DNA of 64,000 bases from Candidatus Poriferisodalis sp. (GTDB lineage: Bacteria > Actinomycetota > Acidimicrobiia > Acidimicrobiales > Poriferisodalaceae): contig NZ_OZ242363.1 in assembly GCF_965208895.1 (NCBI RefSeq), positions 1,307,105-1,371,104 of the forward strand, in the 5' to 3' direction. The notes beneath the pieces are model-generated. The model ran no database searches. It was given only the letters and a program-made list of their open reading frames with translations, and was not told where the DNA came from. Both the position numbers and the translations under genes were made by a program. Below are positions 1-22,549 of this stretch, piece by piece (the first letter of the stretch is position 1; each line of letters begins with the position of its first letter).

Positions 1-1312
1 TCGCGATCGCGCGTTCACGCACCGCCAGCGATTGCTCACCAATCAGGAGTTGGCAACCGATTCCAGAACGCCGCAGTCGCTCGCTGAGCTGCCGCAGCGG
101 ATCGATGGTGAAGGAGAACACCACGGTCTTGCGCCCGCGAGCAGCTGCGGCCTGCACCAGACCGCTCGCACGATCCAGCTTCGCGCTGTCGCCGGATACC
201 GGCTCCCAATCACAGATGGTTCTCAGTCGGCCGAACAATGCCAGGAAGTCGCCCGGGCCGCTCGACGACAGGCTCCGAATCGCCTCGTTGTAAGCAGCGC
301 GCTGCGCCGGGAGCATCTCGCACTCGACTGTGTGCTCGACAGCAGTCGGCAGCTCGGGAAGCACAGATTCCTTCGTGCGTCGCAGCAAGTAGGGACGAGC
401 GCGAGCACGCATCGTTTCTAGTCCGAGCCGGTCATCGTCGATCGAATACAGACGAGGCTCCAACAGCGACAACAGGCAGGCCAGGTCAGCTGCGTCCCGC
501 TCAACGGGCGTGCCGGTCAGCATCCACAGGCGGGGAGTGACGAGTCGGCGCATGGCCTGACTCAACTGAGAGTCCGATTTGCGTAGTCGGTGCGCTTCGT
601 CGGCCACGATCAAACTGGGAGGTTGACGCGCCAAGTGTCGCCAGAGATCGCGTACGTCTTCGTAGCTGGCGAGCACTGCGTGTGCTCGGGCTGCGGCACG
701 GTGCCAGTCACTGTCCGCGAAACCGCCGCCGAGCCGGTCAAGCCCAAGGACCGTCAGTTCGGGCGCCCATCGGTGAAACTCAGCATCCCAATTTGCGATC
801 AGTGTTCGCGGCGCCGCCACGAGACACGTTCTCAATCTTCGAGCGCGGTACAGCCTCCGGATGGCGGCGATCACCTGTACCGTCTTGCCAAGGCCCATAT
901 CGTCGGCAAGCACGGCGCGGTTGCGTTGCAGAAGAAAACCGGTACCGCTTCGTTGGAACGGATACAGGGAGTCTTGAACTCTGCGCGGTAACAACAATGG
1001 CACTACGCGCCGCAATGCGCGGTCGTAGTCACGCTCATGCCCCGGAGCGCAATTGAATGTCCATTCCAAGGTTCCCTCGCGCAAACCGCGAACCTTTCGG
1101 GCAACTGCAGCGTCATTCGCAATGAGCTCAAGAACGGCCGCTACGAGTCGCCGATCGCCCGATGGAACAGCAATCTCGGTGTGCTGCTCGTAGCAAATAT
1201 TGAGGAATCCCCATTCGCCCCGATGCTCTAGTTGCGCGAGCACGACATCCGAATCTGGCCACGGGCGCACATAGGCGCGCTTCATGGCCGGAACATGACG
1301 TAGCGCGCTCAT
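1..1312 (-). CDS. SNF2/Swi2-family helicase, partial (C-terminus runs off the window start); candidate restriction-side helicase of the Ssp locus
   Basis: Absent from the ORF track because it has no stop inside the window. My manual reverse-strand translation is open from ATG 1312 to position 1. It reads ..AVLADDMGLGKTVQVIAAIRRL.. (motif I), ..SLIVADEAHRLRK.. (motif II, DEAH at 590-601), ..RLWMLTGTPVERD.. (motif III) and ..RPYLLRRTKESVLPELP.. (SNF2_N hallmark). Confidence 0.8.
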   Translation of the reverse strand, partial: MSALRHVPAMKRAYVRPWPDSDVVLAQLEHRGEWGFLNICYEQHTEIAVPSGDRRLVAAVLELIANDAAVARKVRGLREGTLEWTFNCAPGHERDYDRALRRVVPLLLPRRVQDSLYPFQRSGTGFLLQRNRAVLADDMGLGKTVQVIAAIRRLYRARRLRTCLVAAPRTLIANWDAEFHRWAPELTVLGLDRLGGGFADSDWHRAAARAHAVLASYEDVRDLWRHLARQPPSLIVADEAHRLRKSDSQLSQAMRRLVTPRLWMLTGTPVERDAADLACLLSLLEPRLYSIDDDRLGLETMRARARPYLLRRTKESVLPELPTAVEHTVECEMLPAQRAAYNEAIRSLSSSGPGDFLALFGRLRTICDWEPVSGDSAKLDRASGLVQAAAARGRKTVVFSFTIDPLRQLSERLRRSGIGCQLLIGEQSLAVRERAIA

Positions 1313-1370
1313 ATCCCTGCAGGAACAGGCTGCTCACAGCATCGTTCGGTAGTGACTGGCACGGGCGTTC

Positions 1371-2777
1371 CTACACGAGGAGCCCGGCCTCGATCTCTGT
1401 CCACAGCGACTCGACCTCCTCGCCGGCGTCAAGCGGAAGCATCATCTCCCACGCGGCGCGCAGCCCGGTGCTGCCGGAAATGTCGTCTTCGGCATGCTGG
1501 TCCAGCCCAAGTTGCCATCGCAGGATCCGCTCGGCTACCCGCAGGCGAGCCTTGCGGTCTTCGTTGGTAATGCGCCAAGCCCCGTCTTCGGCGCGAACTA
1601 GGAGCAGGTGCCTCCACGGCGCTGAGTGAGCCTCCCAATTGATCCGGTCGAGCGGCCGGAGCGCATCCTCAGCCGCCACGGCATCTAGTTCCGCAGCCAC
1701 ACCTGATGTCTGCTGTCGTGCAATCGCCTCGTTCAGCATGTCCCGCGCCAATCCCACTACGAGCAGCTGAACGATCGGCCAAAACAGAACGTTGTCACGC
1801 GTGTCGCCCTCAAGGTCGGCCCCGTGATCGCGCATGCGCGCCGGGTCTTCAGACAAGACCGGCAAAGCGGTTATCAAGCCATCCCAACAAATCGTCAATT
1901 CTGCACCAAGTGCTTCGATCTCGTCGTCGTCTGGCCGAAAACGCTTGTAGTCGCCGAATTTATCGCCGTGTGCGCCCCAGCCAAGATTACGGCGATCCGG
2001 TGTATACAACCATTCAATATTGAGTCGATACAGCATCTCCAGACTCGTCCAGTGGCTCGATCCTGGTCGTACGTTCTTTCCAGGTTCCATTTTGATTCGA
2101 TCAGAGGTGAACTGGTCACTTCCAGCGCGAAAGAACGGATGTTCTGTTACAAGGCGACGTGTGATGATCGCCAATGAGTCATCCTCGTCCATTACAATGT
2201 TCTCAAACTCGGACATATTCTTCGCATAGCGATTGAGATGTCCAAAGAGCCGACGGTAACGGACCATAAACTCTTGAAGATCTTCGTGGTATCGAGGAGT
2301 CACAATGACAACCGAGGCCTCTTCGTCACGGAATCCCTGTGGCGCCGACCAATCACTCTCGCCGTCCACAAGCGAACGGATTGCTGCGAGCCGGTGCTGA
2401 CCATCAAGGGCATAGTACTGTTGTCCGCCATCGAACGTCAGCACCCCGAACGCCTCTGTCAAACGCCGATCGCCACGCAAGATCCGGAACTCCGGAATAT
2501 CTTCGATGCTGACCGGATACCACTGAGGTTCACCGTCAAACGCGGCGACGACAAGCGAGTTGAAGAACCTGTCCTTGTGCTTTGCGAGATAGCTTGCGAT
2601 CTCACCATGGGAACGTGAACGCTTGAGTTGACGTTGGATTGCCGCCGAAAGTTCGGTGGGTCCGTGGATTTCTTCGGCGAACTTGACGTTCTCGGCAAGC
2701 TCGCGCATGGACATCCGCACCATGTAGTATTCCCAGCTTCCCATCTTTGCCCGAATAGCCGGATATATCTGAGTCAC
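1371..2777 (-). CDS. DGQHR-domain protein (DndB-like / ParB-fold family)
   Basis: The 468-aa ORF carries the family signature ..QQYYALDGQHRLAAIRSL... It lies directly upstream of the SNF2 gene on the same strand. Sampled lines are about 47-50% GC. Confidence 0.8.
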   Translation of the reverse strand: MTQIYPAIRAKMGSWEYYMVRMSMRELAENVKFAEEIHGPTELSAAIQRQLKRSRSHGEIASYLAKHKDRFFNSLVVAAFDGEPQWYPVSIEDIPEFRILRGDRRLTEAFGVLTFDGGQQYYALDGQHRLAAIRSLVDGESDWSAPQGFRDEEASVVIVTPRYHEDLQEFMVRYRRLFGHLNRYAKNMSEFENIVMDEDDSLAIITRRLVTEHPFFRAGSDQFTSDRIKMEPGKNVRPGSSHWTSLEMLYRLNIEWLYTPDRRNLGWGAHGDKFGDYKRFRPDDDEIEALGAELTICWDGLITALPVLSEDPARMRDHGADLEGDTRDNVLFWPIVQLLVVGLARDMLNEAIARQQTSGVAAELDAVAAEDALRPLDRINWEAHSAPWRHLLLVRAEDGAWRITNEDRKARLRVAERILRWQLGLDQHAEDDISGSTGLRAAWEMMLPLDAGEEVESLWTEIEAGLLV

Positions 2778-2843
2778 TTCACCTACTCCTAGATTAGTTT
2801 AGGTCTGATTGTGGCTTCGCCATGAGGCTGAACCCAATAGCAC

Positions 2844-3533
2844 TCACACACGTTGAGGCTCGCCAAGTCGAGCGATGAGGGGCCGCCCTCGCGGCATGCT
2901 GCGATTCGCGGGCGGCGACAGCACCCGAACTAACTCCGACTCGGCATCACGAAGCCACGTCGCAGAATCATCAGAGTGAGCATCTGGTACCACTGTGAAT
3001 GCGAAGTTCAAATAGCCGAATATCGTATGGCAACGGACGATCAGGGGGTTCGGTGACTCCGGATTCGCATGCTGCAGAAAGCGGCGCCGCAGGTTGTCGG
3101 AACGACCCGCGTAGATGGCATTGACCAAGTCTGCGGGAATCTGATAGTTCCTCGCGAGACGCTCTCGTTCTGTCAGCAGCAAGTAGACCCCCGGGCGAGT
3201 CGGGATGCTGTCCCGATACAGGCTGTTGAGTGGCTTGCGCCTCCATTGTGCGCCCCGAAGCACCTCGGCCAATTGGCGCCAATCAGCCGGTTCGAGGGAC
3301 CAACCATCGAGAGGCATGCCCTCACCGGCTTCCGTCGTTATGCGGAGGTAGCGAACGCTCATGAGGCCGAGCCATCGCGTGTGCCCCAACTGATTGATTC
3401 GGGGCAGGTGCCACCTCGAGGTGGGTTGAATCCCGCTTCGCAGGCGCGGCAACATGCGCCTGCAACCGCCGTGCTGTTCGAACTCCGCTGAAACGTTGAC
3501 CTGACGCTGTGAATTCAACGTCTCCCGCGGCAA
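2844..3533 (-). CDS. GIY-YIG nuclease-domain ORF, probably the C-terminal part of a frame-shifted larger gene
   Basis: GIY-YIG pattern ..RPGVYLLLTERE..(x)..AIYAGRSDNLRRRFLQH.. followed by ..AESELV.. and ..PPANR... The frame is open up to 3650 with no ATG/GTG/TTG before the TTG at 3533. Confidence 0.65.
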   Translation of the reverse strand: MPRETLNSQRQVNVSAEFEQHGGCRRMLPRLRSGIQPTSRWHLPRINQLGHTRWLGLMSVRYLRITTEAGEGMPLDGWSLEPADWRQLAEVLRGAQWRRKPLNSLYRDSIPTRPGVYLLLTERERLARNYQIPADLVNAIYAGRSDNLRRRFLQHANPESPNPLIVRCHTIFGYLNFAFTVVPDAHSDDSATWLRDAESELVRVLSPPANRSMPRGRPLIARLGEPQRV

Positions 3534-4977
3534 CCGAGATTTGAGCTGCTCGAGTTCGATGCTTGAATTGCTCCGGGCCGAGGAAGGAAACTTCAGCTGA
3601 GCCGTGTACCACGAGCCCGACGCTCGTCCCTGCCCTCGCTCCCAGACCCCTCAGCGCCGCCGCGATTCGGCCAATCTCGGGTCCGTGAATCGATGTCTTG
3701 CGCCAAATCACCGACACGGCAGGGCATCCCGCTGGCGACTTGACCGCAGCCGACGCCTTCCGTCCGAAGCCTGCGCCGAGCGCGACCGATACCTCAGGCG
3801 GAACGTTCGTGAGGCTGTAGCCGTGTAGGAATCTGTCCTCTACCGCGAACGTCCACACGGGTTCGCCCGCGGCCGTGACAGCGTCGGCGATGTCATCGAT
3901 GACGCCCTGCACAGTGGGGGCGTGTGTGGCCTCCCGGACCCATTCATGCTCGACGACGAAGGCCGGTGTCTCCACGTAAGCCCGAACGCTGGCCTCTTTG
4001 ACTCCGAACAACCGCGGGATCTCGTCGAGCAAACGGCTTAGCCTGGTGGAACCGCCGTCCTCGTTGATGCGTTGGCGAATCTCGGCTGGGATCCCCTCGT
4101 ATACGTCGTCAACCCAATCGTCGAAGCCCCAGGTGGTCTTGGAAGCCCGAACTACACCCCCCATCCCCGCGAGCACGGCATCCACCCGAAACATTGGCCC
4201 TTCGATCTCCGGTCGCAGCCGATCCTCGATCTCCGCCTTCGTCGCCGGTCGGCCAATCGACATCAGTGCGGCCGCGACCTGTGCCCGGCGAGTCGACGCG
4301 AGGACCAGCACGCCACACACCCTCGTCAGTCCGGCGACCGACAGCATCTCTGCCCAGTCGTCACTCCAGCGTTGGCCCAACTCCGAGCGGCGCAGTCGTT
4401 CCTCGGCAACGCATCCGAAATCATCGCTGAACTCTCTCGCCAGCGCCGCAAGTTGACGTGCTGCGGCAACGGCTCTGCGACTCGTCCAGATTCCGCCATT
4501 ATCTTGGTAGCCGAGTTCCACCATGAGTCGTCGCGAGATGATGCGGCCCGCGAGGTCGTCAGCCCCTCCCGTGAGCGCAGCGATGGCGCCTCGGAGGCGT
4601 TCATCATCCGCGAAATCGCCCAACCAGTCCGTCAGAGGCGAAATAACTTGGCCAAGAAATGGCCCGAGCGCTTCGTCGATCCGTGACCGCAGTTTCGATT
4701 CGATGCCGCGGACCCGTTCTCCGGTCCGACGAACCCAACGGCCGATTTCGGCCAAGGTTGCCGGCTCTGCAGCGGCGATGCGGTTCTTGAGCACGATTAC
4801 ATCGACGTCATTGGCTTCGGCGATGAGCTGCCTTACTGCGCTGGTTGCATCGCGAATGATGTCGGCAATTTCCGAGTCGTTGTCCTGACGAAGTGCCGAC
4901 AGTGGCGTTGAGCTGGCCGGCTCTACCCGCCTCCCAACTGCGTCACCGTTGCTGTACCGGGACCGACCACTGCTCAC
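3322..4977 (-). CDS. Hypothetical protein with a sigma-70 region-4-like helix-turn-helix; the real coding part probably ends near 3600
   Basis: ..EPATLAEIGRWVRRTGERVRGIESKLRSRI.. resembles sigma-70 region 4.2. GTG 4977 overlaps the sspD stop as GTGA; ATG 4995 is an alternative start. The first 53 codons of the track ORF overlap sspD and look spurious. GC3 collapses downstream of about 3600. Confidence 0.55.
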   Translation of the reverse strand: MSSGRSRYSNGDAVGRRVEPASSTPLSALRQDNDSEIADIIRDATSAVRQLIAEANDVDVIVLKNRIAAAEPATLAEIGRWVRRTGERVRGIESKLRSRIDEALGPFLGQVISPLTDWLGDFADDERLRGAIAALTGGADDLAGRIISRRLMVELGYQDNGGIWTSRRAVAAARQLAALAREFSDDFGCVAEERLRRSELGQRWSDDWAEMLSVAGLTRVCGVLVLASTRRAQVAAALMSIGRPATKAEIEDRLRPEIEGPMFRVDAVLAGMGGVVRASKTTWGFDDWVDDVYEGIPAEIRQRINEDGGSTRLSRLLDEIPRLFGVKEASVRAYVETPAFVVEHEWVREATHAPTVQGVIDDIADAVTAAGEPVWTFAVEDRFLHGYSLTNVPPEVSVALGAGFGRKASAAVKSPAGCPAVSVIWRKTSIHGPEIGRIAAALRGLGARAGTSVGLVVHGSAEVSFLGPEQFKHRTRAAQISVAAGDVEFTASGQRFSGVRTARRLQAHVAAPAKRDSTHLEVAPAPNQSVGAHAMARPHERSLPPHNDGSR

Positions 4978-5822
4978 AGCGCGCACACCGTGCATTGCTC
5001 GTCTGAGTCTTCTTCGTCGAATGCGTCTGCGAGGACTTCGATCAGCGGGATATTGCGTCGGGCAGTCTTGGCGCGGGCTAGAGCGGCTGCGTGGCGATCG
5101 AGGATCTCGGTACGGCGGGAGCGGAGCTGGACGAGCGTTTCGCCTCCGCTCCATGTGTATTGGCGGCCTGCCATGGCTCGATCGCCGAAGTCGGCATTGC
5201 CGTCGACGCCAGCGTCGAGCAACATTTTCTGTTCAATGGCGATGGCTCTCTCGAAGAGTTCGGGATGGCGGTCGGCGAGGCCGATCCACTCGGCCTTTCG
5301 CTGGTAGAAGCAGAAGTAGCAACCTGAGCGCGTCCGCCATTCGTAGTAGGCGGGCAGGCCGATGCCGGCATCGTCGAGGATCTGCATGACGCCGTCGTGA
5401 TCGATACCGTCGTCGACGAATGGGAAACGGCTCTCAATGTTCGGCTTCGTTGAGATGTAGCCCTTGCGGTTCGCTTCGTCTGCTCGGATGGCTACGTAGG
5501 AGATTGCGGGCTCATCGCCGATCCACGCTTCGATCGGCTTGATCTTCATCACCTTGGTGCACCAGCGCATCTGCGGTGACGGCAGCGCCCCGCGGAATAC
5601 CTCGAACCAGTGGTCGAACCCCCGCTCTGAGTTCAGACGGATGATCGGCTTGCCCAGGATGACTTCGAGGCGTGTCAAGAATTCGTAGGTCTCGGGAAGC
5701 TCGGCGCCCGTGTCGCAAAAGAAGTACTCCATCTCCGGCACCCGCTCGCGCAGATAGAGCGCCAGTGCGCTCGAATCCTTGCCACCGGAAATACCGCAGA
5801 TGTGGCGAACCGGCGCGGTCAC
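4974..5822 (-). CDS. sspD: PAPS-reductase-like PP-loop ATP pyrophosphatase (SspD-like; DndC-related)
   Basis: The N-terminal PP-loop reads ..HICGISGGKDSSALALYL... The 282-aa size is right for the family. It has a 4-nt overlap with the upstream ATPase ORF. The operon context includes DUF4007 and a cysteine desulfurase. Confidence 0.8.
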   Translation of the reverse strand: MTAPVRHICGISGGKDSSALALYLRERVPEMEYFFCDTGAELPETYEFLTRLEVILGKPIIRLNSERGFDHWFEVFRGALPSPQMRWCTKVMKIKPIEAWIGDEPAISYVAIRADEANRKGYISTKPNIESRFPFVDDGIDHDGVMQILDDAGIGLPAYYEWRTRSGCYFCFYQRKAEWIGLADRHPELFERAIAIEQKMLLDAGVDGNADFGDRAMAGRQYTWSGGETLVQLRSRRTEILDRHAAALARAKTARRNIPLIEVLADAFDEEDSDEQCTVCAL

Positions 5823-6484
5823 AGCACGCCCTCTGCGATCTTGGCCGACGGCGGGTCGGCATCGGTCCGCGCGGCGCCAGCCGGGGCCAGCAGGCGCTCT
5901 GCGAGAATCGCCAGTGCTGCGTTGTGGGCTCGTTGCGGTGAACCGACTGCTTCGGTGATTCTGGCAAGCAGGTCGTCGACTGCGGGTTCAACGGCGGATC
6001 GCTCATCGTGTGCGACGCCAACGAGGCGCGCCTCTTCGGCGCCTGAGGGATCGGTCACAGAAATGCGCAATGCCTCGAATGGCAGACCGTCGGCTGCTCG
6101 CCGCTCGGCATGCAGCGCCCTCAGCCGGTTGAACGCCGCAAGCCTCTGCGGCAGTCGCGCGCGAACAGCCGCCAAGTCTCGATCGTTCCACTCGGTCGGT
6201 GCCTTGCCTGCGAGCACGGTGGCGACTGACGCCATCCAATCGTGGTCGTCCTCGTAGACGTCGTTGGAGAGCGCCAGCACAAAGCTGCGCATCTGCGGGT
6301 CGAGCACCTCATCTATGAGTCCGACTGCTGGACCCGACACTGCAACGCGAGCACGCTCACCGGCGGCTGCGAGCAGTTCAGCGCATAGCTCGAGAATTAA
6401 CTCGCGGCAGCGTCCGGTGAGCTCGTCGAGGCTGAGCGCGAGGTTGTTCGCGAATTCATCGCGATTACCCCCCCCCCCCCCCCA
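5819..6484 (-). pseudogene. sspC: C-terminal ~220 codons of the SspC-like ATPase, displaced into another frame by the poly-G tract
   Basis: In this frame the tract reads W-GGGGG-NRDEFANNLALSLDELTG.. and stays open to 5819, ending in a 4-nt overlap with sspD. The part of the track ORF upstream of the tract (6485-6562) overlaps the real sspC frame and is junk. Confidence 0.6.
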
Positions 6485-9410
6485 TCTCAGGTGTGCCGAC
6501 AGCGGCATCCGTCGCAGTCGCAGGAATGGGGGCGTATCCGAGAGCATCGGGCAGCGCTTCAAACAGCAGCACGTCTGGCTCAGTCGCCTCGGTGAGCGCG
6601 TCTCGTACAGCGAGCGCCCTATCGCTCAGGTGCGACGTGCAGCGAGTCCAGTTCTCGAGCCTGCGAGTTCGAGCCGCGAAGTGCCGGGTCACCGACAGCA
6701 CATTACCGACCCGGCGATTGCCGATGCCGGCGTCAATGCCAAAGCGTGCCCCAAGCGCATCGAGTGCGGCCTTGCGGGGGCCGGAGACGTTCGCAAAGTG
6801 CTTGACCTCGAAGTGCTCCGGATTGCGCACCATGCGTTCCGAGAGGTCAGCCGACAGGCCGAGCTGGAAGGTGCCGTGCTCGTAGATCGCCATGCGGTCG
6901 GCACGTGCGAGCAACGCGGCGGTGACGATCACGGGGATGACACCGGCCTTCACGCCATACGGAGGCGATGCCAAGGTCATGTACAGGTCTCGGACATTGA
7001 GGCGCTTGGTCTTCGCGGACTCAAATACCTGTTCGATCGCCTGCCATGCAGGGATGAGGCGCAACCGCTCGATTTGTCGGCTGCTTTGCGATGGCTTGCT
7101 GCCGCGGCGCACTCGCGGCTTGCCGAAGATGAGATCACCGCCGGCCTTCTTGGGGCGATGCAGTCCGGCATGTTTCAGCGCCGCCTCGTACATGGCGACC
7201 TCGGGTCCGTAACCCTTGAGGCCGAGCCGATACTCGGCGCTGCGCTCGATCATGGCTTCCAGCAAGATCCGACGGGCCTTGGCTCCTTGCGAAGTCAGAT
7301 CGGAGCGGTTCAGCATCTCGTTGGGTACACGCGGCGCATCTGGGTAGGCGAGATCTGCCGCTTCCGAGAGCGGCGCACTCCCCCGTCCTGGTCGCAGCAC
7401 AACCCCGGCGTCGTCATCGAGCAGCACCCATCGGCAACTGTCTGTGCTGAATGCTGAAGTCACCGCCGCTTCAAGCTGTACGCGCGCCGACGCCAGCCGC
7501 TCGCCCACTTCGCGTCGGGCGACCCAGTCAGTTTCCACCTGTGGAGCCGACAGAACGTCGCTCAACGCAGCCACGGCGCGCGCAGCGCTATCTAGCGCTG
7601 CAACATCTTCGGGCAGAGCCGCAACCACCGGTTTTGACTGCAGCCGACGCACCCGGTCCGAATCGTCCAGTGCACGGCCAGAACTGCGAAGCGCTTCCTC
7701 AGAGAGCCTCGGTAGTCCGTCGCCCGGATTCGCCACCAGCAGCAGCTCACCGTCAATCGGATCGAGCGGCGCCGGCGGCACGACGGTCTCGTCGCCGTTC
7801 ACGAAACGGCGGCTGAACAATCGCACCACGTCGTTCTGGGCGCTGTGTCGAGCAGCAACTACTGGCTCGAGCTCGTAGACGGCGCCGAGCACTCGGTGCA
7901 GCGGCCGATCAGTGGCTCGGTCGTATGCCGCTTCGAGCAGCTCGGAGATATTGACGTCGGATCCTTGCCAGATTCGGTATTCGTCGGCGAATGATCGGTA
8001 CGTCACCAAACCGCGCTGTTCAAGGCCGGCGAGCACATCCTTCGACCCAGAGTCGACGAGGTCGAGGACAGGAGCGCTGGCCCGCACTGCGCCAGAAGCG
8101 GAGACGAGGTTCAGTAGCGCCACTGTCTTGGCGACGCGTTGCTCCGCAGACGACATCCCGTTGGCATCTCGCAGCCGGCTTGCGATCTCGGTCCATCGGC
8201 TTGAGCGACCAACGGCGCTGACGCCGGCGCCGCCCGTGGCCATGAAGTAGTCGTAAACAGCTTCGGGGCCGATCGAAGGCACGTCGTCGGAGCAGTCGAC
8301 CTTGATGTCCGCTGCGAGCGAAGCCACTGTCCCTGACTCGCTGCCGGCCAAGAAGGAGAACAGCGTTCGCTCGTGCTGGCCGAATCGGTTGCACAGCTCG
8401 GGCAGAACAAGCGTCGAGACGGGGTGAAGCGGCCAGCACGCCGCGATCGTTCCTGGGTCACTGAGATCGGTGATGCCTGCCGACGCAAGCAACTTCGCAT
8501 GGTGCGTGGCCCACTTGTCGATGCGCTGGTGCAGCTGTTCGTCGCTGACTCGGAACGCCTGAGCTATCAGCGCTCGCGTCTGAGGGGCCGATTCGGTGAA
8601 CGCGATATCGACGAAGCGGCCTTGCACCTTCGCCCAGTCGCGACGCCGACGATCGTCGACATCGGCGAGGTATTCCTCGAACGACAAGTGCTGCAGGGTG
8701 ACCACGAAGATCGGCAGCCCGGCGCCCTGCCCGGCCTCGGCCAGCCGTTGCAGGAGATAGGTGTCGCTGGACTCGTTGCCGCCTGCGGCCTCGAGGTTCT
8801 TTCCGAACTCATCGATGACGATGAGCAGTGGGTCTTGCGAGGCCATGCAGCGCGCAATCTCTACGAGTTCGCTCACCGATGGGTCAACCGGGTCTTCGGT
8901 TCGCCTGACTCGCCGCTGCGCAAGCTTGAGCAAGGACGATGCCGGGAACTCGGCTGAACCTGGAACCTTGCCGTAGCGGCGCGTCACTGCTCGATGAAGA
9001 CCGCGCAGCACCGTTCGTGCAACTGGTTCACGATCGGCAGTGACCAGCGCTCGATAGAAGCCTCGCGAACGGCTGCGGTGCGCCGAAAGCGCCTGATTCA
9101 GCTTGTTCTTGGCCGTTGGCGATGCTTCTGCGATCTTGTCGAGCGCGCGATCTCGTGCGATACCCGCAGGTCCGAACGCCGCATCGAGCAGCAAACCCAG
9201 CGACGACTTGCCAGAGCCGTACGGTCCTGTGACCGACCACGCACCGCCAGCGGGCCCGAGCGCGGAAGACGCAATGCGTTCGACCACATCGAGCGCCCGC
9301 GCCGTCACTATGTAGCCGTCGAGCGGTTCGGCGTTCTCGGCGTCGCGTTCGAGGTTCGCCGATCGGGCGAACTGACGCCGGACGCTGAGCACGTCAGCCA
9401 GCACGGTCAC
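6465..9410 (-). CDS. sspC: Large P-loop ATPase, SspC-like (N-terminal 981 codons; ends in the poly-G tract)
   Basis: Walker A is ..VTGPYGSGKSSLG.. and Walker B is ..PLLIVIDEFGKNLE... It has a 4-nt overlap with the DUF4007 gene. The product ends ..PEMGGGGG-TAA inside the homopolymer. Confidence 0.7.
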   Translation of the reverse strand: MTVLADVLSVRRQFARSANLERDAENAEPLDGYIVTARALDVVERIASSALGPAGGAWSVTGPYGSGKSSLGLLLDAAFGPAGIARDRALDKIAEASPTAKNKLNQALSAHRSRSRGFYRALVTADREPVARTVLRGLHRAVTRRYGKVPGSAEFPASSLLKLAQRRVRRTEDPVDPSVSELVEIARCMASQDPLLIVIDEFGKNLEAAGGNESSDTYLLQRLAEAGQGAGLPIFVVTLQHLSFEEYLADVDDRRRRDWAKVQGRFVDIAFTESAPQTRALIAQAFRVSDEQLHQRIDKWATHHAKLLASAGITDLSDPGTIAACWPLHPVSTLVLPELCNRFGQHERTLFSFLAGSESGTVASLAADIKVDCSDDVPSIGPEAVYDYFMATGGAGVSAVGRSSRWTEIASRLRDANGMSSAEQRVAKTVALLNLVSASGAVRASAPVLDLVDSGSKDVLAGLEQRGLVTYRSFADEYRIWQGSDVNISELLEAAYDRATDRPLHRVLGAVYELEPVVAARHSAQNDVVRLFSRRFVNGDETVVPPAPLDPIDGELLLVANPGDGLPRLSEEALRSSGRALDDSDRVRRLQSKPVVAALPEDVAALDSAARAVAALSDVLSAPQVETDWVARREVGERLASARVQLEAAVTSAFSTDSCRWVLLDDDAGVVLRPGRGSAPLSEAADLAYPDAPRVPNEMLNRSDLTSQGAKARRILLEAMIERSAEYRLGLKGYGPEVAMYEAALKHAGLHRPKKAGGDLIFGKPRVRRGSKPSQSSRQIERLRLIPAWQAIEQVFESAKTKRLNVRDLYMTLASPPYGVKAGVIPVIVTAALLARADRMAIYEHGTFQLGLSADLSERMVRNPEHFEVKHFANVSGPRKAALDALGARFGIDAGIGNRRVGNVLSVTRHFAARTRRLENWTRCTSHLSDRALAVRDALTEATEPDVLLFEALPDALGYAPIPATATDAAVGTPEMGGGGG
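6468..6483. repeat. Homopolymer: 16 consecutive C (poly-G on the coding strand) at the sspC frame break
   Basis: Direct count in ..gcgatta-cccccccccccccccc-atctcag... Confidence 0.95.
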
Positions 9411-10483
9411 CGCCCCGGCCCCCCGTCGCGTCGCGCCTGCCGCACATGCAAACGAGTCAGAACATCTTCCGTTACGTCGTTGTCGCTCGGTTCGTCTGCG
9501 CGAACCGTCGGCTCGTCGCCCAGAGGCCCGGCAATTGGATCAGGGGGCACGACGCCGTAGTGCTCGGACAGCAGTTCGGCCGCAACCACAGCAGCGTCGC
9601 CCTTCCATGAGAGCTGGGGCACCCCTGTCGGTGTCGTGAAGTCCAACGAGTCCGCGACCTCGACTGCCGGGGTTAGAGCCGTGAACAAGTCGGCGGCATT
9701 CAACTTGAACACGCTCGCCGGCGAGCCGCTCTCCGCGACGATTCGTTCGAGTGTGATCGTCTGGCCCGTCAGGCCGGTGCGCGCGATCCAGTCCAGCACG
9801 GCGTGTGCCGCAACCGCAGATGCCAGTGTCGGCTTCAAACCCAGCTTGTAGCGGTGGGCGCCGGTCGCCTCGGACCGGCCGACCAGACGAAGTTCCCGCA
9901 GAGGGCAGTCTGCTGCATCGTCGACAGTCGCTCGGCTAGTACGAGACGTCGGGCCATACGTGCGCATGAAAGCGCTGAGGTCCTTCTCGACCGCGGACTG
10001 GCTCGGCTCCTTCCAGTCGGGCACCGAACGCAGTTGCGTCATCACGGACCTGCCGAGATCTTCCACCTCGAACTCCACCGCATTGAAGTCGCAGAGCGCC
10101 AACCACCACACTGGCAATCGGCACGGGCGAGCCAGCAGGCGCCAGTGCAGCAGCCACAGCGATGCCGGATCCTCCATCCACGGATCCCAGCCGTCTTCAC
10201 CAAACAGCGCTTCGCCAAAGCGAGTCGGCATCACGATGGTCGGCTTGCGACCCGACCGAGCGTCGGGATCAGGAACTTCGACAACCACCTTGGCCGCGAG
10301 CCCCCAGAAACGAATGGCGCGAACCATGTTCTTGCCCACGCCCAGGCGCACCGGAGCGTCCTCGCTCGCAAAGACACGCGGGTCAGCAGTAGCCGCTACA
10401 TACGCCTTCCTGAACCAGCCGTAGCGAGGATGGAATGTCTCATGGCGTGCGAATACCGGCTCCGCGGCCTCGCTCAGCTGCAC
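9407..10483 (-). CDS. sspB: DUF4007-family protein (SspB-like)
   Basis: ..ARHETFHPRYGWFRKAY.. and ..RLGVGKNMVRAIRFWGLA.. are the motifs I associate with DUF4007. The gene sits between the cysteine desulfurase and the ATPase. Confidence 0.75.
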   Translation of the reverse strand: MQLSEAAEPVFARHETFHPRYGWFRKAYVAATADPRVFASEDAPVRLGVGKNMVRAIRFWGLAAKVVVEVPDPDARSGRKPTIVMPTRFGEALFGEDGWDPWMEDPASLWLLHWRLLARPCRLPVWWLALCDFNAVEFEVEDLGRSVMTQLRSVPDWKEPSQSAVEKDLSAFMRTYGPTSRTSRATVDDAADCPLRELRLVGRSEATGAHRYKLGLKPTLASAVAAHAVLDWIARTGLTGQTITLERIVAESGSPASVFKLNAADLFTALTPAVEVADSLDFTTPTGVPQLSWKGDAAVVAAELLSEHYGVVPPDPIAGPLGDEPTVRADEPSDNDVTEDVLTRLHVRQARRDGGPGR

Positions 10484-10484
10484 G

Positions 10485-11663
10485 TCACGCTGCCTCTGTA
10501 GTCATGAGCCGAACGTAACGAACGGCTGTGACAACCTTCTCGGCGGCGGCGGCAATTTCGCTCGATGTGGTGAATCGTCCGACGCTGAACCGCACCGACT
10601 CGAACGCCGCTTCACGCGACAGCCCCATCGCCGTCAGTACCGGCGACGGTTCGATCGCACCGGTGCTGCAGGCGCTCCCCGCGGATGCTGCGACAGGGTC
10701 CATGTTCACGAGCACGGCATCCGAATCCGTTCCGGCGAAGCGGAGGTTGGCGGTATTGGGGAGCCGACGTTCGATGTCGCCGTTCTGTTCGACCGCAGGC
10801 AGAGCGTCGATCAGCGCATCAACGAATCGATCTCGCAACGCGCCGACTCGCTCGGCTTCCGTTTCCAGCTCATTGGCTGCAAGCTCCGCAGCGACTCCCA
10901 GGCCGACGATGCCCGCGACATTCAGCGAGCCCGAGCGAAGGCCGCGCTCATGGCCACCGCCCCACAGCATCGGGTGCAAAGCAGCGAGGGCTTCACGAGT
11001 CCCGACCAGGGCGCCCACGCCCGTCGGGCCGCAGATCTTGTGACCACTCAGCGAGACCAAGTCACAGCCGAGCGTCGTCATATCGAACGGCAGCCGACCA
11101 ACCATCTGGGTGGCATCGCAGTGGAACAGCGCCCCTGCCTGATGAACGATCTGGGCAATCTCCTCGATGGGATTGAGGACGCCCGTCTCGCTATTGGCAG
11201 CCATGACCGACACCATCACGGGGCGTCCCGTCTCTGCCAGCAAGTCAGCCAGCGCGTCGACGTCAACAAACCCGCCAGGCGTGACGGCGGCAGTGCGGCG
11301 CTTGCAACGACCGGTCGCGGCGAGAGCCTCTGCCGTTCGGCTGACAGATGCATGCTCCACCGCGGAGACCACCAGCATCGTTGTCGTATCCGGCTGAGAT
11401 CCGTGGCTCGCCGGGGCGAATCCGCCGAGAGCGAGGTTGTTGGCCTCCGTAGCGCCGGCGGTGAAGACGACCCCACCCGGTGCTCCGCCCACGAGAGCCG
11501 CCACCTGTTCACGGGCCTCACTGACCGCTGCGGCCTGCCGCTGGCCGAATCGATGGGCTGACGACGCATTGCCGAACCCGTCGGTCATGGCTTTCGTGAC
11601 AGCGTCCGCCACCCGCGGATCGCAAGGCGCGGAGGCGTTGTAGTCGAGATAGATCTCGTTCAC
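10485..11663 (-). CDS. sspA: Class-V aminotransferase-fold cysteine desulfurase (IscS/NifS/DndA-like; SspA by context)
   Basis: ..IYLDYNASAP.., ..SGHKICGPTGVGAL.. (PLP lysine region) and ..AASAGSACSTG.. (active-site Cys loop). It is the first gene of the operon. Confidence 0.8.
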   Translation of the reverse strand: MNEIYLDYNASAPCDPRVADAVTKAMTDGFGNASSAHRFGQRQAAAVSEAREQVAALVGGAPGGVVFTAGATEANNLALGGFAPASHGSQPDTTTMLVVSAVEHASVSRTAEALAATGRCKRRTAAVTPGGFVDVDALADLLAETGRPVMVSVMAANSETGVLNPIEEIAQIVHQAGALFHCDATQMVGRLPFDMTTLGCDLVSLSGHKICGPTGVGALVGTREALAALHPMLWGGGHERGLRSGSLNVAGIVGLGVAAELAANELETEAERVGALRDRFVDALIDALPAVEQNGDIERRLPNTANLRFAGTDSDAVLVNMDPVAASAGSACSTGAIEPSPVLTAMGLSREAAFESVRFSVGRFTTSSEIAAAAEKVVTAVRYVRLMTTEAA

Positions 11664-11682
11664 TCATGACCCCGGGTCGGTG

Positions 11683-11775
11683 GCAGCACTGGCCTTGCGG
11701 CGAGCGTAAGCGAAGCACCTCCGAGCACCGGGGACCCCACGAATTTCGCTGCAGCCGGAGCGAGGTGCCATCAGC
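11683..11775. repeat. Direct repeat copy 1 (core 11687-11744) flanking the DUF3800 cassette
   Basis: The core cactggccttgcggcgagcgtaagcgaagcacctccgagcaccggggaccccacgaat matches 12806-12863 at 55/58 positions. Weaker, gapped similarity continues for about 30 nt. Confidence 0.85.
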
Positions 11776-11851
11776 CCACATCGCAGCGGCGGATCCGGGC
11801 AGCGAGAAATTCTCAGCAGACCGCGAACGCCGGGCTCGTAGTGTCACGTCG

Positions 11852-12562
11852 ATGGCGACCCGACTGCTGTTCTTGGACGACTCGGGCAAGCCTGCGGCGA
11901 ACGACGGCACCATGGCGGTGGTCATCGGCGGTTTCTCGATCGCCGCCGAAGACGTCCCCGATCTCAGTCGGAGAATCGTGGGCGCCAAGGCGCGCTTCTA
12001 TCCAAATCGCGGGAACCCGACGGACTGGGAAGTCAAGTCCACAGACACGATCTCACCGAATGCATGGAGGCGCCGCAAGAACCGCGACTTCATTGACGAG
12101 CTGACCCGCATCCTCGAGCGACTGTCATGCACTTCGTACACCGCAGGCATCCGCAAGGCCAACATGCTGCATCCGATGACGCTCAAGACCACCGTCCCGT
12201 TGCAGCTTCAGGCCCTCGTCGAACACTTCGCCGTGGAGTGCAAGACGCAGCAGGCGACCGGAATCGTGGTGTCGGACTGGTCCAATCATCAACTCGACGA
12301 ACACGCCAGCCGAAGCGTCGCGAGCTATGCCGCGTCCTACCGGCTCAACATCCATCCCGGCGTCTACTACGCCAGCTCCCACACGACTCAAGCCATCCAA
12401 GCCGCCGACCTCATCGCAGGCATTCGACGCAGGGTGCTCGAAGGCGATCAGCGGTTGGCAGCAGTCGGTCGCCGACTCTCATCGCTGAGCGCCGTTGCCG
12501 ACGGAAACGCATATCGCACCCATGCGTGGCGCACATTCACGAACCAGATCCTCCTGTTCTGA
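11852..12562 (+). CDS. DUF3800-family protein
   Basis: ..MATRLLFLDDSGK.. at the N-terminus and ..SHTTQAIQAADLIAG.. near the C-terminus fit DUF3800. The start is trimmed to ATG 11852; the track ORF N-terminal extension covers the repeat. Confidence 0.65.
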   Translation: MATRLLFLDDSGKPAANDGTMAVVIGGFSIAAEDVPDLSRRIVGAKARFYPNRGNPTDWEVKSTDTISPNAWRRRKNRDFIDELTRILERLSCTSYTAGIRKANMLHPMTLKTTVPLQLQALVEHFAVECKTQQATGIVVSDWSNHQLDEHASRSVASYAASYRLNIHPGVYYASSHTTQAIQAADLIAGIRRRVLEGDQRLAAVGRRLSSLSAVADGNAYRTHAWRTFTNQILLF

Positions 12563-12668
12563 GGGTTGCGATCCGGTTGCATCTCTTCGTGCCCGCGCCT
12601 ACAGTGGGCTTCGTCGAATGGTCCGGTTAGTAGGCGCGAGCCGAATGCAACCGACATACCGCGGCGAC

Positions 12669-12698
12669 GGGACCCCGGACCGCACGGGGTCCCTTTTT
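12669..12698 (+). terminator. Rho-independent terminator-like hairpin
   Basis: gggaccccg-gaccgca-cggggtccc gives a 9-bp perfect stem, followed by ttttt. It lies about 105 nt downstream of the DUF3800 stop. Confidence 0.7.
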
Positions 12699-21412: not shown

Positions 21413-22549
21413 TCAAGCGTTGAGCTGCTCGAAGCGCTCCATGACGTCGAGATACTCGCTGATCATCTCTTCGACGACCCGCGTGGCCGAGATCGACTCG
21501 TTGAGCTGCCCGACCACCTGGCCCACGAAGTAGTTGGCCAGCTCGACCGCACCCGTGTTGGACGGGTTCATGGCGGCCCGATCGATGCGGCGGCTGGCCG
21601 CGCCGATCAGCATCGGCTGCAGCGGCATCGGCAGCGTTCCCGGCGAGTTCTCGCCCTCCCACTCGTCGGTCCATGCTGAGCGGAGCTGACGTGCTGGCTT
21701 GCCGGTGCGAGACCGTGACCTCAGAGTGTCCGACGAACCGGCCGCCAGGAATTTCTCCTTCACGACCGGGTGCGTCTCGGCTTCCTGGGTGGTGAGCCAC
21801 ACCGAACCGCACCACACGCCCTGCGCGCCCAGTGCCAGCGCGGCTGCGACCTGGCGGCCGTTGCCGATGCCGCCCGCGGCGAGCACAGGCACCGGCGCGA
21901 TGGCATCCACCACTTCGGGCACCAGCACCATCGAGGCGATGTCGCCGGTATGGCCGCCGGCCTCGTGGCCCTGAGCGATCACGATGTCGACGCCGACGGC
22001 AACATGGCGCTCGGCGTGCACCTTCTTGCCCGCCAGCGCTCCCACCAGCACGTCGTTGTCGTGCGCCCGTTTGATCATGTCGGGCGGCGGCGGGCCGAGC
22101 GCGTTCACGGCCAACCGGATCGGGTAAGAGAACGCCACGTCCATCAACGGCACTGCCTGCGCGTAGGTCATGGGCGGCTCGGAGTCGCCGGCGATTGCGC
22201 CGGGCTTGTCTTCAGCCGGCAGCGGCGGCACGTCGTAGCGCTCCATCATGTCGTCGAGGAACTCACGGTGCTGTGGCGGGATCATCGCCTTGAGGTCCTT
22301 GACCGACAGCTCGCCCTCGGTCTTGCCCTCGTATTTGGCGGGCACGATGATGTCCACGCCGAAGGGCCGGCCGCCCACCTCGTCGGTGATCCAGCCCATG
22401 TCGATGTCGAGCTGTTCTGGCGTGTGACCCGCTGCGCCGAGCACGCCGAAGCCGCCCGCCTTGGTCACAGCCGCCACTACGTCCCGGCAATGTGTGAAGG
22501 CGACGATCGGAACGTCGCAGCCGAGCATCTCGCACACAGGAGTCTTCAT
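21413..22549 (-). CDS. Nitronate monooxygenase / NAD(P)H-dependent flavin oxidoreductase family
   Basis: ..PIVAFTHCRDVVAAVTKAGGFGVLG.. and ..AAGGIGNGRQVAAALALGAQGVWCGS.. match the family. Confidence 0.7.
   Translation of the reverse strand: MKTPVCEMLGCDVPIVAFTHCRDVVAAVTKAGGFGVLGAAGHTPEQLDIDMGWITDEVGGRPFGVDIIVPAKYEGKTEGELSVKDLKAMIPPQHREFLDDMMERYDVPPLPAEDKPGAIAGDSEPPMTYAQAVPLMDVAFSYPIRLAVNALGPPPPDMIKRAHDNDVLVGALAGKKVHAERHVAVGVDIVIAQGHEAGGHTGDIASMVLVPEVVDAIAPVPVLAAGGIGNGRQVAAALALGAQGVWCGSVWLTTQEAETHPVVKEKFLAAGSSDTLRSRSRTGKPARQLRSAWTDEWEGENSPGTLPMPLQPMLIGAASRRIDRAAMNPSNTGAVELANYFVGQVVGQLNESISATRVVEEMISEYLDVMERFEQLNA

Follow-up and report, generated by a model that had tools for sequence, protein, structure and literature searches.

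Phase variation by simple sequence repeats is well known for methylation-based restriction-modification and for the Streptomyces phage growth limitation (Pgl) system. In Streptomyces coelicolor Pgl, a type 2 bacteriophage exclusion (BREX) system, a G tract in pglX phase-varies at a frequency of 1e-2 to 1e-4 (Sumby & Smith 2003, as cited in PMC4365076), and in Bifidobacterium breve a G11 tract was reported for which 63% of the molecules in culture differ from the annotated length (PMC9187656). In the BREX system of Salmonella, the N-terminal part of the ATPase BrxC suffices for methylation, while its C-terminus is needed for restriction (PMC9009780). DNA phosphorothioation (PT), the modification considered here, is puzzlingly partial and heterogeneous, and a 2018 review of the field saw no simple sequence repeats in dnd genes (PMC6435447). 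In this study, we analysed a 64,000-nt stretch of the genome of Candidatus Poriferisodalis sp. (contig NZ_OZ242363.1), in the following called the window, in which sspC, the ATPase gene of an ssp phosphorothioation operon, is split by a run of 16 G. We propose, with a probability of about 0.6, that this run is a conserved hypermutable homopolymer acting as a slipped-strand contingency (phase-variable) switch, which in the window was assembled in its out-of-frame (OFF) state. An initial annotation of the same DNA knew of no such case for an Ssp or Dnd gene, and in our full-text literature search, likewise, repeat-mediated switching was not reported for any Ssp or Dnd gene; the term ‘Poriferisodalis’ matched no paper in full text. 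Among PT systems, a conserved, length-polymorphic poly-G in sspC would be the first candidate for a contingency locus.

Positions 6468–6483 of the + strand are sixteen consecutive C, corresponding to G16 on the coding minus strand, and are flanked by tta (6465–6467) and atctca, of which tta reads TAA on the minus strand and constitutes a premature sspC stop directly after the tract. In translation, the 981-codon open reading frame (ORF; 6465–9410, minus strand) ends in ..TPEMGGGGG*; the neighbouring +1 frame (5819–6562, minus strand) reads, in two excerpts, ..RWGGGGGNRDEFANNLALSLDELTG.. and ..WGGGGGNRDEFANNLALSLDELTG.., and stays open for 215 further codons to a stop at 5819. The tract and both frames had been described in this way in the initial annotation, and its details could be read back from the sequence. 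Its further claim, that 15 or 18 G would fuse the two parts, holds as well and extends to 12 G: in an in-silico rebuild of sspC covering 12–20 G, lengths of 12, 15 and 18 G gave a single ORF of 1195, 1196 and 1197 aa, respectively, lengths of 13, 16 and 19 G a stop immediately after the tract, and lengths of 14, 17 and 20 G a 23-aa tail. So long a run had been considered very unlikely by chance, in agreement with our finding that it is the sole homopolymer of at least 8 nt in the window (64.9% G+C). The next longest runs are two 7-mers, and homopolymer counts drop ~4–5-fold per extra base, with 170, 31, 8 and 1 C runs at lengths 4–7. The 4-nt overlap considered typical of the junctions of this operon is observed between sspC and sspD, where the sspC stop and the GTG start overlap as GTGA (5819–5822), and between sspB and sspC (9407–9410), but not between sspA and sspB, which are adjacent with a 1-nt spacer. 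A GAGGG Shine-Dalgarno-like motif is located upstream of the sspD start, so that sspD need not depend on coupling to sspC. Scanning the operon for promoters and terminators revealed nothing informative close to the tract, an Rfam search of the window gave no match, and an exact-protein look-up of the 981-aa product returned no record.

The identity of the gene as SspC, proposed initially from the letters and translations, was obtained independently from PADLOC profiles. The 5′ part matches the SspC profile PDLC02781 with an E-value of 6.5e-271 over profile positions 2–934 of 1104, and the 3′ part matches the same profile with an E-value of 4.5e-23 over positions 938–1104, so that both halves align in order, as the collinearity check suggested at the outset was meant to establish. 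The 5′ part also matches the BrxC/PglY profile PDLC02478 (BrxC, E 5.7e-91) and features a Walker A motif, GPYGSGKS, and a Walker B-like motif, VIDEFGKN, whose columns G62, P63, G65, S66, G67 and K68 as well as D200, E201, F202, G203 and K204 are invariant across 40 homologues. Intact SspC homologues comprise 1192–1198 aa, so that a stop at the glycine run is not the normal end of SspC; together with the collinear halves, this rules out the alternative that SspC regularly terminates there and is followed by a separate 3′ gene. The genes sspA-sspB-sspC-sspD are contiguous on the minus strand (4974–11663), with family-level PADLOC matches for all four. By these profile matches the window carries an SspABCD phosphorothioation module, and single-strand PT modification of the host DNA, e.g. 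CpsCA, is predicted. Since no PglZ or PglX match occurs among the operon ORFs scanned, SspC is an ATPase homologous to BrxC which is not part of a BREX system.

The possibility that the 3′ part is translated alone, as a separate subunit, deserves consideration, since gene callers predict ORFs of 157–220 aa past the tract in OFF loci, several of which share a conserved in-frame start, MSGPAVGL.. (173 aa). However, the called starts vary between loci, no ribosome-binding site is evident at the start (by inspection only), and initiation at MSGPAVGL would delete the first long helix of the domain (residues 985–1017 in the intact homologue P0003). As fused full-length alleles moreover occur in the same lineages, we consider a split gene barely credible.

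The closest SspC homologues stem from uncultured Acidimicrobiia of sponge or marine origin, including Candidatus Poriferisodalis. We compared the DNA of 13 related loci from independent assemblies with the window, giving 14 loci which we refer to as the tract clade. A pure G run of 8–26 nt is present at exactly the same site in 14 of 14 loci, on diverged flanks, while relatives outside the clade carry unrelated sequence at this site. The run is OFF in the window (16 G), L008 (17 G), L002 (11 G), L003 (15 G), L009 (16 G), L004 (14 G), L139 (15 G), L134 (26 G) and L138 (16 G), and in frame (ON) in L001 (11 G), L005 (14 G), L133 (11 G), L135/L136 (8 G) and L137 (15 G). Four more alleles could be inferred from database proteins, one ON and three OFF, leading to a census of ~6 ON and ~12 OFF alleles. 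This corresponds to 1:2, the ratio that tract lengths drawn at random, irrespective of frame, would give. Length differences are found between otherwise nearly identical genomes: over 19,036 bp, L004 and L139 differ in nothing but the tract, with 14 versus 15 G, and L001 and L005, with 11 versus 14 G, share 98.2% identity over 10.3 kb, L135 showing the same flanks with 8 G. At the protein level, one 90%-identity cluster contains full-length variants of 1196, 1197, 1197 and 1198 aa next to truncated ones of 997, 998, 1005, 1005 and 1010 aa, where the four full-length variants differ by single glycines (SGGGP, SGGGGP, SGGGGGP) and the five truncated ones cover both wrong frames. A tract that is kept at the same spot and varies in length between near-identical genomes looks like a reversible on/off switch. 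Of the two explanations considered in the initial annotation, switching or miscounting, phase variation is therefore favoured by the conserved site, the length polymorphism and the presence of both ON and OFF alleles. A pattern scan of metagenome contigs (GGGGGGGG N{34,62} GAYGARCTCAC) was too loose to add further alleles; it returned at least 120 stretches, and tblastn recognised sspC in none among the matches listed. On the practical side, annotation pipelines split sspC into two ‘hypothetical proteins’ in most assemblies, which should serve as a warning.

Long homopolymers are weak spots on all sequencing platforms, and any ±1 error shifts the frame. The real length in the window could accordingly be 15 (or 18) G, leaving sspC intact and rendering the frameshift a sequencing or assembly artefact. 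In line with such a miscount, L004 and L139, which differ at the tract only, were assembled at 3x and 161x coverage, respectively, and all long-read-style assemblies of the clade, by which we mean contigs named ctg..x_l/c and OZ accessions, are OFF (L004, L139, L138, L008, L009), in-frame alleles being found only elsewhere, mostly in short-read-style assemblies. This distribution could reflect a platform-specific homopolymer error; with 0 of 5–6 long-read-style loci ON, it is not significantly different from the expected third. An assembly glitch at the tract is found in protein P0129, a 540-aa fragment of the P0003 cluster, which reads ..SGGAPPPEGGGGG.. at this site, switching from a G run to a C run and back to G. 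However, OFF alleles with 11–15 G are also present in short-read-style assemblies (L002, L003, P0130/P0131), lengths from 8 to 26 far exceed ±1 noise, and L139, a circular genome at 161x, is itself out of frame. A crude gene map based on third-position G+C content, intended as a test of assembly quality, was too undiscriminating to show other frameshifts in the window. Altogether, we regard a miscount as unlikely. Since the tract is conserved and length-polymorphic even if the window was miscounted, this alternative concerns the state of the window and not the nature of the element.

Several of these observations also weigh against the proposed contingency switch. The evidence for length polymorphism and for the count of 16 consists of assemblies and not of reads, and heterogeneity within a population is a prediction of the model. 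Random miscounting would also yield an ON:OFF ratio of 1:2, which is added to the uniformly OFF long-read-style loci, and P0129 gives the impression of a chimera assembled at the homopolymer, a place where assemblers struggle. Most contingency genes have their repeat near the 5′ end, whereas the tract is located at 82% of sspC, and OFF may therefore not be a null allele. Finally, the closest relative, L008, carries an insertion sequence element inside sspC in addition to its out-of-frame tract, from which it follows that loss does occur in this lineage.

Loss of the Ssp system, with sspC frameshifted by decay in the lineage of the window, was assessed from the ratio of nonsynonymous to synonymous substitution rates (dN/dS). 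In L008 (OZ246894.1, an Acidimicrobiales metagenome-assembled genome of ~92% nucleotide identity) sspC is hit twice, by the 17-G tract and by a 1.85-kb insertion (4054–5904) at codon ~108, corresponding to window positions ~9075–9085, which carries a 523-aa transposase-like ORF. Nevertheless, the comparison of the window with L008 gives dN/dS of 0.16 for the 5′ part and 0.15 for the 3′ part of sspC, next to 0.03–0.20 for sspA, sspB and sspD. Among 8 loci, the 215 codons downstream of the tract display dN/dS of 0.04–0.15 at synonymous divergences (dS) of 0.6–1.7, and OFF–OFF pairs are also constrained downstream of the tract, e.g. L002–L003 with 0.044. The downstream codons are hence under strong purifying selection and not in decay, and the decaying form of phase-off sspC, which had initially been left as an option, is not supported by these values. 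Apart from the tract, sspC of the window shows no other lesion, sspA, sspB, sspD, the gene for protein X and the DndB-like gene (see below) are intact, and tract and intact downstream frame persist across dS > 1. We therefore consider decay highly improbable.

The run itself has been kept beyond neutral expectation, as is characteristic of contingency loci, and is uninterrupted in each of the 14 loci, at dS reaching 1.7. Among the Gly codons of sspC, GGG accounts for 14% and GGC for 53%, and no other run of at least 6 nt was found in sspC of the eight loci examined, so that codon usage does not account for the tract. Maintenance of the run across synonymous saturation indicates selection for it, or at least none against its mutability. 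Further characteristics of contingency loci are likewise observed, namely a simple repeat in a coding sequence, length polymorphism and the toggling of an intact, selected ORF (6 ON, 12 OFF).

Slippage could alternatively take place during expression, if RNA polymerase or ribosome slips on the tract and any DNA length yields both truncated and full-length SspC, rendering the DNA frame nearly neutral. The tract would in that case be retained for the production of two isoforms. This would jointly explain the conserved tract, the downstream purifying selection and the neutral 1:2 ratio of ON to OFF, and for A/T runs it is established that transcription slips on long homopolymers. G/C runs are, however, generally reported to cause weaker slippage than A/T runs, and the site is not a classical programmed recoding site, as the alleles comprise in-frame, +1 and +2 arrangements on differing flanks. 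A classical programmed frameshift was rejected, because the frame relation of upstream and downstream parts is not conserved among homologues. Slippage at the expression level appears quite improbable to us.

As structural reference we used P0003, an intact homologue, in an AlphaFold2 model with a mean predicted local distance difference test score (pLDDT) of 76.7. In this model, the Gly run (residues 979–982) lies inside a disordered coil (957–984), with pLDDT below 50 at 967–981, which connects a conserved helix to the C-terminal helical domain (985–1175). This linker is the least conserved (majority fraction 0.32) and most length-variable stretch of the SspC alignment. With the Gly run placed in a linker, in-frame length changes merely add or remove linker glycines; out-of-frame lengths, according to the model, remove a whole domain. 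The fold of the N-terminal ~570 aa of the P0003 model matches the solved BrxC AAA+ structures 9zll and 9zdx in a fold search, by which alone this relation to BrxC structures was found, since a phmmer search with the fused SspC matched none of the PDB sequences.

We propose a model for the contingency switch in which slipped-strand mispairing during replication would gain or lose G. Lengths of 3n (12, 15 or 18 in the window sequence) would lead to full-length SspC of ~1196 aa, while other lengths would stop translation at or just past the tract, resulting in a protein of 981–1004 aa devoid of the C-terminal helical domain. In-frame length changes would be harmless, as they fall into a disordered, length-tolerant linker. 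We infer that the 16-G run is at least as unstable as the G tracts of pglX and B. breve, that switching occurs frequently and in both directions within a population, and that the OFF state alters modification and/or defence. The placement of the tract before a C-terminal domain is unusual, and by analogy to BrxC, SspC may combine a core for modification with a separable domain for defence coupling. Truncated SspC might then keep modification and lose coupling to the downstream effector genes. A more specific and rather doubtful version of this model considers the tract a selected domain-toggle in the SspC linker, with slippage at the DNA and/or RNA level determining the choice between the full-length and the 981-aa product. 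Full-length SspC would then modify DNA and couple to the downstream module of X, DndB-like, SNF2 and SBD-HNH proteins, whereas the 981-aa form would support phosphorothioation yet not license restriction. If true, this would represent a safe phase switch between restriction-negative, modification-positive (r-/m+) and r+/m+ states for PT-based immunity, and could contribute to the partial, heterogeneous PT modification that has long been noted in populations.

The features of the locus are compiled in Table 1. Downstream of sspD, the operon is followed by a partner module (window 2–4995, minus strand; 14418–20738 in L001) which is neither SspE (with DUF262/DUF1524) nor SspFGH: none of the three complete downstream ORFs has a PADLOC match to SspE, SspF, SspG or SspH, the DndB match being the only one to a defence family. 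Its first gene encodes the conserved protein X, which has no match in Pfam or PADLOC and is 60–72% identical to the product of the gene following sspD in the tract-bearing loci L001, L008, L009 and L004. For the small protein encoded next, equivalent ORFs in L009 and L007 match Pfam GIY-YIG. The SNF2 helicase is followed in relatives by a ScoMcrA-type SBD-HNH nuclease (by synteny in L001, L133, L004, L009 and L138), and the position of a PT-binding nuclease adjoining a PT writer is intriguing. A DndB-like gene is present in every tract-bearing locus whose contig reaches past sspD; most of these loci also carry X, the small GIY-YIG-like protein, the SNF2 helicase and SBD-HNH, while L003 and L134 display a shorter variant composed of GIY-YIG, DndB-like and SBD-HNH genes. 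Among tract-less loci, L130–L132 carry a GmrSD_N/GmrSD_C (SspE-type) gene, and L006 and L007 a related GIY-YIG/DndB-like/helicase module. A rule by which the C-terminal type of SspC tracks the type of effector consequently holds only in part, since SspE-linked loci are tract-less, but so are L006 and L007. In L004, a run of eleven C (22155–22165) is located 7 nt past the end of the second SBD-HNH gene, between its stop codon and a 680-aa ORF; no further run of at least 8 nt, the sspC tracts aside, was found in any of the related ssp loci scanned.

Table 1. Features of the ssp locus in the window (positions in nt from the first letter of the window).
Feature	Position	Strand	Basis
Poly-G tract, G16 in coding orientation; putative slippage-prone switch	6468..6483	-	direct read
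sspC 5′ part, 981 codons + TAA 6465-6467, BrxC-like AAA+ ATPase	6465..9410	-	translation, PADLOC
sspC 3′ part, 215 codons + stop, +1 frame relative to the 5′ part, C-terminal helical domain	5819..6466	-	translation, PADLOC
sspD, PAPS-reductase-like, GTG start	4974..5822	-	PADLOC SspD E 9.8e-108; Pfam PAPS_reduct
sspB (DUF4007)	9407..10483	-	Pfam DUF4007 E 2.3e-72; PADLOC SspB E 3.5e-91
sspA (cysteine desulfurase)	10485..11663	-	PADLOC SspA E 1.4e-124; Pfam Aminotran_5
Conserved protein X, first gene of the downstream partner module; homologous part ~3442-4995	3322..5154	-	
Small protein, possibly GIY-YIG-like	2844..3533	-	weak NCBIfam group I intron endonuclease match E 2.6e-4
DndB-like / DGQHR-domain protein	1371..2777	-	Pfam DndB E 1.8e-24; NCBIfam DGQHR E 4.2e-26
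SNF2-family helicase, cut by the window edge	2..1333	-	Pfam SNF2-rel_dom E 8.8e-43

The sspC gene of the window is a recombinant mosaic, of which residues 1–840 are 86–98% identical to the P0001 type and residues 850–1196 are 91–96% identical to the P0003 type, with the junction at window positions ~6700–6900 (codons ~840–900). In loci of the P0001 type, the tract is missing and sspD is followed by an SspE-like GmrSD gene. SspD goes with the C-terminal type of SspC (92–94% versus 83% identity). Relatives carry alternative ssp cassettes at this chromosomal site, which adjoins znuA/ABC/Fur and a phosphoribosyltransferase gene, and third-position G+C within the ssp island (window 1–12600) amounts to 0.62–0.75 compared to ~0.8 in most other genes of the window. 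The lower third-position G+C and the alternative cassettes at one site fit a horizontally exchanged defence island. Divergent from sspA, a DUF3800 protein is encoded at 11666–12562 (+ strand), with a strong terminator-like hairpin after it at 12669–12693.

Among the described systems, Streptomyces Pgl is close to the locus: in both cases a high-GC actinobacterium carries an intragenic poly-G in a gene of a modification-based anti-phage system, where length switches the frame, and the ATPase of that superfamily, PglY/BrxC, is a homologue of SspC. In contrast to Pgl, the tract is situated in the ATPase gene instead of the methyltransferase gene, at 82% of its length and before a C-terminal domain, the modification is phosphorothioation instead of methylation, and switching is deduced from comparative genomics. 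With the mod/hsd genes of type I/III restriction-modification in Haemophilus, Neisseria and Helicobacter, sspC has in common that slipped-strand mispairing in a coding repeat would give ON and OFF alleles; these systems, however, involve other chemistry and another protein family, their repeats usually reside near the 5′ end and produce null alleles, and their hosts are cultured pathogens with measured switching rates. The pilus genes of B. breve (PMC9187656) provide an actinobacterial example of an intragenic G10–G11 tract in a gene annotated as two ORFs, with tract lengths very heterogeneous within a clonal culture. Their target is a pilus subunit and not a defence or epigenetic gene, while the sspC tract is longer (8–26 G) and conserved across species-level divergence. 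With type 1 BREX BrxC (PMC9009780, PMC13326643), SspC shares the architecture of a large AAA+ ATPase with a C-terminal region, separable in BrxC and putatively so in SspC, the similarity in sequence being confined to the profile level. The SspABCD-SspE and SspABCD-SspFGH systems (Xiong 2020; PMC8092258) finally correspond to the locus in the set and order of sspA-B-C-D, with strong profile matches, and no homopolymer switch is described in them. Here, the scanned downstream ORFs of the window hold, in place of SspE or SspFGH, the X, GIY-YIG-like, DndB-like and SNF2 genes, joined by SBD-HNH in relatives.

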